Source of the DNA: Escherichia coli
Lineage (GTDB): Bacteria; Pseudomonadota; Gammaproteobacteria; Enterobacterales; Enterobacteriaceae
DNA length: 41,409 nt
Assembly: GCF_003334765.1 (NCBI RefSeq)
Contig: NZ_QOWT01000034.1
Direction: 5' to 3' (one strand)
In this document: positions 38,161 through 38,328 of the stretch, piece after piece
How the letters are laid out: each line of letters begins with the position of its first letter
Position numbering within the stretch: the stretch's first letter is position 1
Position numbers and translations under genes: made by a program
Notes under the pieces: generated by a model
Told to the model about the DNA's origin: nothing
Seen by the model: the letters and a program-made list of their open reading frames with translations, nothing else
Databases searched by the model: none

Positions 38161-38184
38161 AGAGACTCCCGTATACTTTCTTCA

Positions 38185-38217
38185 AAAATAAATGAAAATA
38201 GTTCTTATTTCAATTAC
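38185..38217 (-). promoter_or_regulatory. Candidate Fur box in the bfd promoter region
   Basis: A/T-rich hexamer-repeat-like sequence AATAAATGAAAATAGTTCTTATTTCAATTAC just upstream of bfd; partial match to the GATAAT-repeat architecture. Confidence 0.3.
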
Positions 38218-38290
38218 GGAAAGACTCTTTTTTAAGCAAAGAATAGAAATATGAATAAAAATAATGGGCTACCAAAAGTAGCCCATTGAC

Positions 38291-38321
38291 AAAAAATGCG
38301 GCGATACTGGAAGGTATCGCC
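38291..38321 (-). terminator. Intrinsic terminator after chiA
   Basis: Minus strand GGCGATAC-cttccag-TATCGCC followed by GCATTTTTTG, 8 nt after the chiA stop; a second hairpin ATGGGCTAC/GTAGCCCAT lies at 38264-38286. Confidence 0.7.
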
Positions 38322-38328
38322 AACACAT

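Follow-up and report, generated by a model that had tools for sequence, protein, structure and literature searches.

The short stretch between chiA and bfd in Escherichia coli raises the question of which signals it holds, and how they are divided between the end of one gene and the start of the other. Bfd, a bacterioferritin-associated ferredoxin, aids iron release from bacterioferritin. The locus was analysed within a contiguous stretch of 41,409 nucleotides (the window), in which the chiA-bfd spacer occupies positions 38161-38328 (168 bases, A+T content 67-75%). The names chiA and bfd, first given to the flanking genes in the original prediction, were right, as RefSeq annotates both under matching genomes. 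The genes chiA, bfd and bfr are all encoded on the minus strand and lie downstream of gspK-O (Table 1). Since chiA and bfd share this strand, the spacer is read in the order chiA stop codon, hairpins, bfd promoter and bfd ATG. Across the 1.2 kb that was compared around the spacer, the window did not differ from K-12 W3110, and a 521-nt query across the chiA-bfd junction found a match in 3161 of 5426 complete E. coli genomes.

Table 1. Genes, predicted signals and mapped Fur peak at the chiA-bfd-bfr locus (positions in the window).
Feature	Position	Strand	Sequence, parts or score	Basis
chiA (bifunctional chitinase/lysozyme)	41022-38329	minus		ORF listing; name from RefSeq annotation
chiA stop codon	38331-38329	minus	TAA	ORF listing
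Terminator 1, predicted	38291..38322	minus	stem GGCGATAC 38321-38314, loop CTTCCA, stem GTATCGCC 38307-38300, GCA, TTTTTT 38296-38291	terminator scan, inverted repeat, fold
Terminator 2, predicted	38254..38287	minus	stem AATGGGCTAC 38287-38278, loop, stem GTAGCCCATT 38272-38263, tail ATTTTTATT 38262-38254	terminator scan, inverted repeat, fold
W3110 Fur ChIP-exo peak P166 (4173360-4173372, iron-replete)	38213..38225			PMC10164565 Dataset 2 and coordinate mapping
-35 hexamer	38208..38213	minus	TTGAAA	promoter scan
Fur box 1, predicted	38194..38212		minus-strand sequence TGAAATAAGAACTATTTTC; 12.99 bits	Fur matrix
Fur box 2, predicted	38188..38206		minus-strand sequence AAGAACTATTTTCATTTAT; 7.33 bits; 6 bp from box 1	Fur matrix
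-10 hexamer	38185..38190	minus	TATTTT; 17-nt spacer from -35	promoter scan
Transcription start, predicted, ~38178	38177..38179	minus		hexamer spacing, 7 nt past -10
Shine-Dalgarno	38166..38170	minus	GGGAG; 5 nt before bfd ATG 38160-38158	sequence
bfd (bacterioferritin-associated ferredoxin)	38160-37966	minus		ORF listing; name from RefSeq annotation
bfr	37894-37418	minus		ORF listing

Tandem hairpins downstream of chiA

Two consecutive hairpins had been predicted past chiA, and both were found there as inverted repeats and as RNA folds. The repeat finder returned perfect inverted repeats at 38300-38307/38314-38321 and 38263-38272/38278-38287. Hairpin 1 starts 7 nt past the chiA TAA and hairpin 2 about 12 nt past the stem of hairpin 1. 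The terminator scan flagged both on the minus strand (TGGCGATACCTTCCAGTATCGCCG with the tail CATTTTTTGT, and AATGGGCTACTTTTGGTAGCCCATT with the tail ATTTTTATTC), with 9 and 11 base pairs, respectively, of which 5 in each are G-C. The predicted folding energy was -14.9 kcal/mol for hairpin 1 (z = -5.1) and -16.2 kcal/mol for hairpin 2 (z = -5.6), and for each hairpin 0 of 200 shuffles were as stable. The scan flag, the TTTTTT tract and the folding energy thus supported the reading of hairpin 1 as a terminator with a T-run. The T-run had been ascribed to hairpin 1 only, and this exclusivity did not stand: the tail of hairpin 2 is also T-rich and was flagged alike, which makes the two a tandem pair of intrinsic-terminator-like structures. 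With GC-containing stems of 8-11 bp, loops of 3-6 nt and T-rich tails on the coding strand, they resemble tandem intrinsic terminators, but the chiA stems differ from typical ones in being only about half G-C.

The T-tails of both hairpins are on the chiA coding strand only, and the plus strand shows A-runs in their place. A bidirectional terminator was considered and rejected because of these A-runs and because no gene converges on the spacer; for the same reasons, the hairpins appear to serve chiA only.

One other species of the genome collection, Enterobacteriaceae bacterium UBA5654 (L064), provided a divergent chiA-bfd spacer for comparison. A stem-loop occupied both positions there, but the stems differed in sequence from those of the window. 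The counterpart of hairpin 1 (CGGCCACC/GGTGGCCG, -20.2 kcal/mol) was followed by a tail of only TTT, which is poor for a typical intrinsic terminator, and that hairpin may therefore stabilise the RNA more than terminate transcription. The counterpart of hairpin 2 (TAACGGGTT/AACCCGTTA followed by TTTT, -11.7 kcal/mol) was flagged as a terminator and contained a compensatory T-A to C-G change. Among the E. coli-type variant spacers (n = 5; four E. coli strains and the sequence L019), no changes were observed in stems or tails, and the sole polymorphism in the hairpin region, at 38308, was in the loop of hairpin 1.

It is very improbable that the hairpins are something other than terminators, such as an extragenic repeat, a small RNA or a leader that regulates bfd. 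The repeat-element reading was rejected because the spacer is single-copy, with 3161 places in 3161 E. coli genomes even in the 'distant' mode of blastn. An Rfam scan of 37300-39000 (E ≤ 10) yielded only sub-threshold noise, the best score, 17.4 bits, falling below the gathering score of 58.7. As they are upstream of the bfd -35 hexamer, the hairpins would be outside the bfd mRNA, which argues against a leader. The restriction of the T-tails to the chiA coding strand likewise favours termination, as do the genomes without chiA, from which the hairpins are missing while the bfd promoter is the same. Three observations point the other way: the 1.6-kb scan gave 3 terminator-like sites in total compared with 1.5 ± 1.4 in shuffles, which is no excess over chance; a literature search on chiA termination found no paper and no 3'-end mapping; and the UBA5654 counterpart of hairpin 1 is without a full T-tract. 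Together, the folds, the T-tails and the position just past the chiA stop codon support the two hairpins as tandem intrinsic (Rho-independent) terminators, at which chiA transcription would end.

The bfd-bfr promoter and its Fur boxes

The promoter of bfd-bfr lies about 50 nt beyond the terminators. Genomic SELEX with RNAP-RpoD by Shimada et al. assigned to bfd-bfr, in the chiA-bfd spacer, the promoter TTGAAA-17-TATTTT, the same hexamers as found by the promoter scan (PMC3946193). With the start predicted at ~38178, the bfd leader would be 18 nt long.

A degenerate Fur box had been proposed upstream of bfd, and scoring of 38160-38260 with a Fur position weight matrix had been set beforehand as its refuting test. 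The matrix was trained on 21 classical, iron-replete, intergenic targets with W3110 ChIP-exo peaks (Gao et al., Dataset 2; PMC10164565), from which bfd was excluded. The targets included the ent/fep/fes cluster, sufA, ydiE, exbB, ryhB, feoA, gpmA, fiu, fhuE and tonB, as well as yncE, yddA, cirA, yojI, mntH, yqjH, sodA and efeU. Palindromic EM with a width of 19 was applied to ±60 nt around each peak; it took the classical consensus as its starting point and settled on GATAATGATAATCATTATC (16 bits). The training sites scored 10.2-22.1 bits and were located -19 to +11 nt from the peak centres.

The proposed box withstood this test, as the best match of the whole 41-kb window fell inside the interval: box 1, at 38194-38212, was the top match among 41,391 window positions (12.99 bits), with its partner, box 2, 6 bp away. 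Besides these two, 38140-38330 contained no match above 3 bits, and a search of bfd, bfr and the bfd-bfr spacer in the window, prompted by a second Fur peak of E. coli W assigned to bfr, returned nothing above 3.4 bits. Box 1 takes in all but one of the six -35 bases and 14 of the 17 spacer bases, and box 2 extends over the first three bases of the -10 hexamer. Overlapping clusters of this kind, with a spacing of 3 or 6 bp, are a described pattern of Fur sites (PMC2189734).

Judged from sequence alone, the significance of box 1 is modest, in the range of weak to moderate. Its score was reached by 269 of 20,000 dinucleotide (AT-matched) shuffles of the spacer (p≈0.013), and 36 of 20,000 reached it while also having a second match of at least 7.3 bits 6 bp away. 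In a leave-one-out comparison, 4 of the 21 genuine sites scored below box 1. Across 79,349 positions of other W3110 DNA, one match of at least 12.99 bits was found outside ChIP peaks. Box 1 agrees with the classical consensus at 11 of 19 positions, so 'degenerate' is a fair word for it. When the window was rescored with an AT-rich background, which is unsuited to coding DNA, box 1 dropped to 9.06 bits and ranked third, behind G/C-containing sites. A published 15-mer motif for Fur, searched with two mismatches at most, occurred at 6 window sites (this site and 5 others) compared with 2.25 expected, and it therefore does not discriminate.

Known Fur-repressed sigma-70 promoters, such as those of entC, fepA-fes, ryhB and tonB, share several features with the bfd promoter: a palindromic match of the GATAATGATAATCATTATC type with a second box 6 bp off, boxes positioned over the -35, the spacer and the -10, and iron-replete Fur occupancy with derepression, which for bfd are known from the literature. 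The bfd box differs from this group in its position at the weak end of the range, with 13.0 bits compared with 10-22 bits for the training sites and with 11/19 consensus positions.

An inverted repeat at 38202-38215/38242-38255 (86%) was also considered as a second operator or structure. It was rejected, as its upstream arm scored below 3 bits and the repeat was not kept in the UBA5654 promoter or in promoters of the type found in E. coli W; we regard it as a chance product of A/T-rich DNA. Elsewhere in the window, the second-best Fur-matrix match was at 26584-26602, in the divergent intergenic region of gspA-gspC (10.45 bits), and the third-best at 26843-26861, inside gspC (10.04 bits). A predicted intragenic Fur site in gspC was gel-shifted by Fur in vitro by Chen et al. 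in 2007 (PMC2189734).

Conservation and Fur occupancy of the bfd promoter

The 110 nt upstream of bfd were aligned for 48 sequences, 46 of them from Enterobacterales genomes and the other two from the window and E. coli W. The sole conserved block was taTTG.AAT.a.AA..ATTcTcAtTTAcac, then GGGAG; the DNA upstream of the -35 hexamer was unalignable across the 48 sequences. In 46 species, the bfd -35 aligned with TTGTAA or TTGAAA. The -10 hexamer was TACTTT in many E. coli strains and TACACT in most other enterobacteria. Among the E. coli variants sampled, no polymorphisms were found in the hairpin stems, the T-tails, the -35 hexamer or Fur box 1. Position 38188, the third base of the -10 hexamer, varied: K-12 has the hexamer TATTTT, whereas the five remaining E. 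coli-type sequences (four strains and L019) have TACTTT, which is nearer to the TACACT of other genera. Further E. coli polymorphisms were located just upstream of the -35 hexamer, at 38216, 38218 and 38220.

When 180 nt upstream of bfd were scanned with the Fur matrix, the best match of every one of the 46 Enterobacterales loci had its centre 38-52 nt ahead of the bfd start codon. Scores of at least 10 bits were obtained for 44 of the 46 upstream regions and for none of the 46 coding controls (first 180 nt of the coding sequence), the orthologous loci being non-independent samples. The orthologous promoters also had partner boxes of 5-13 bits at ±6 bp. Most of the distant gammaproteobacterial bfd homologues (L065-L098, n = 34; 39-50% identity; from Pseudomonas, Marinomonas, Alcanivorax and others) carried matches of 13-20 bits at 45-61 nt upstream of the start codon. 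Since the distant homologues mostly carry the box, regulation of bfd by Fur from a site close to the promoter appears to be ancient and to extend across Enterobacterales and beyond.

Fur occupancy, Fur-dependent expression and RNAP binding were taken from the literature, while the elements, statistics, conservation and peak coincidence were determined in this analysis. Fur ChIP data had been named in advance as a second check on the box, and published ChIP-exo peaks were found at or beside it (PMC10164565). Peak P166 of W3110 abuts box 1, its centre 16 nt upstream of the box centre and thus inside the range of the training sites. In E. coli W, a ChIP-exo peak falls on TGTAATCATAACC, the first 13 nt of the best box of that strain (PMC10164565). 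The proposed Fur control of bfd agreed with the derepression of bfd in fur deletions of 8 strains (log2 2.3-7.3; PMC10164565), and with the Fur ChIP-seq binding at bfd and the Fur-repressed bfd promoter-lacZ fusion of Beauchene et al. (PMC4676285). Further studies count bfd among the Fur-regulated genes and give a computed box for it (PMC4145685, PMC3212961, PMC7157518). A literature search for a base-resolution Fur footprint at bfd found none.

There is only a slim chance that the Fur-like match arose fortuitously in A/T-rich DNA and that Fur controls bfd indirectly or at another site. The base composition of the spacer, the 1.3% of AT-matched shuffles that reach the score, the six loose 15-mer matches and the third rank with an AT background would all fit such an origin. 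It does not account for a match that is the top one of the window and is accompanied by so little else in 38140-38330, in bfd, in bfr or between them. Nor would it explain why the position of the box is kept in every enterobacterial locus although the DNA further upstream cannot be aligned, or why ChIP-exo peaks lie on or beside the box in two strains whose flanking DNA differs greatly. We retained box 1 as the very probable site of Fur control.

The genes chiA and gsp are reportedly silenced by H-NS, a finding attributed to Francetic et al. in 2000, and at ftnA, Fur acts as an anti-silencer. That the A/T tract next to chiA and the gsp genes serves mainly H-NS silencing spreading from the chiA/gsp island, with Fur as an anti-silencer, fits the A/T-richness of the region but is highly unlikely, as fur deletion raises bfd, the opposite of the ftnA pattern (PMC10164565, PMC4676285), the same box and promoter also occur where a strain or species lacks chiA or gsp, and H-NS is marked for other promoters in the SELEX table but not for bfd (PMC3946193).

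The spacer thus very probably consists of tandem chiA terminators followed by a Fur-overlapped sigma-70 promoter of bfd-bfr. The two terminators would end chiA transcription and shield the bfd promoter from read-through. With sufficient iron, Fe2+-Fur dimers would sit on both boxes and keep RNA polymerase out; under iron scarcity, Fur would come off and bfd would be transcribed. We infer promoter occlusion as the mode of repression from the standard geometry, in which the boxes lie over the -35 hexamer, the spacer and the first bases of the -10.

Fur regulation of bfd is already known, and the element is ordinary: both the regulatory arrangement and bfd as a target of Fur have been described before. 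The catalogued K-12 bfd-bfr promoter has the same locus, hexamers and Fur assignment, with no difference from the one described here (PMC3946193, PMC10164565, PMC4676285). Added here are the base-level coordinates of the core promoter with its Fur operator and of both chiA terminators, together with the cross-species footprint; their significance beyond annotation is small.

Two bfr-bfd alleles in E. coli

In E. coli W (L002/L099), the gene order is rpsJ, truncated gspO, bfr, bfd and tufA, without gspA-N and chiA. In the comparison with L099, window positions 24624-41261 comprised gspB through gspO, bfr, bfd and chiA. The flanks of the two loci were 99.96% (rpsJ side) and 100% (tufA side) identical, whereas the bfr-bfd-promoter segment (37434-38214) shared only 77% nucleotide identity. 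At the protein level, 57 of 64 amino acids were identical in Bfd and 139 of 158 in Bfr. The near-identical flanks around a segment of 77% identity indicate that in K-12-type strains (3161 of 5426 complete genomes) the gsp/chiA block is linked to a divergent allele of bfr-bfd. In the W type, bfd follows tufA directly, and other enterobacteria resemble this type. Homology between the window and W stops at 38214, the edge of the bfd -35 hexamer, and the hairpins are part of the chiA insert.

The two alleles also differ in their Fur boxes: the K-12-type allele pairs a good box with a weak one, whereas W and most other enterobacteria have two good ones (14.9 and 12.6 bits). The effect of fur deletion on bfd was log2 7.3 in W3110 compared with 3.6 in W (PMC10164565). 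Because homology between the two diverged bfr-bfd-promoter versions ends exactly at the -35 hexamer, the gsp/chiA island may have replaced the native bfd operator and shifted the strength of Fur repression or its iron threshold by strain, a speculative scenario to which we give little credence. The divergent K-12 bfd-bfr block with its operator, which is linked to the gsp/chiA island, could underlie strain differences in the mobilisation of iron stores. A second iron-replete Fur peak of W, at 3667719-3667731, was assigned by Gao et al. to bfr as 'intergenic'; RefSeq coordinates place it inside the bfd coding sequence.
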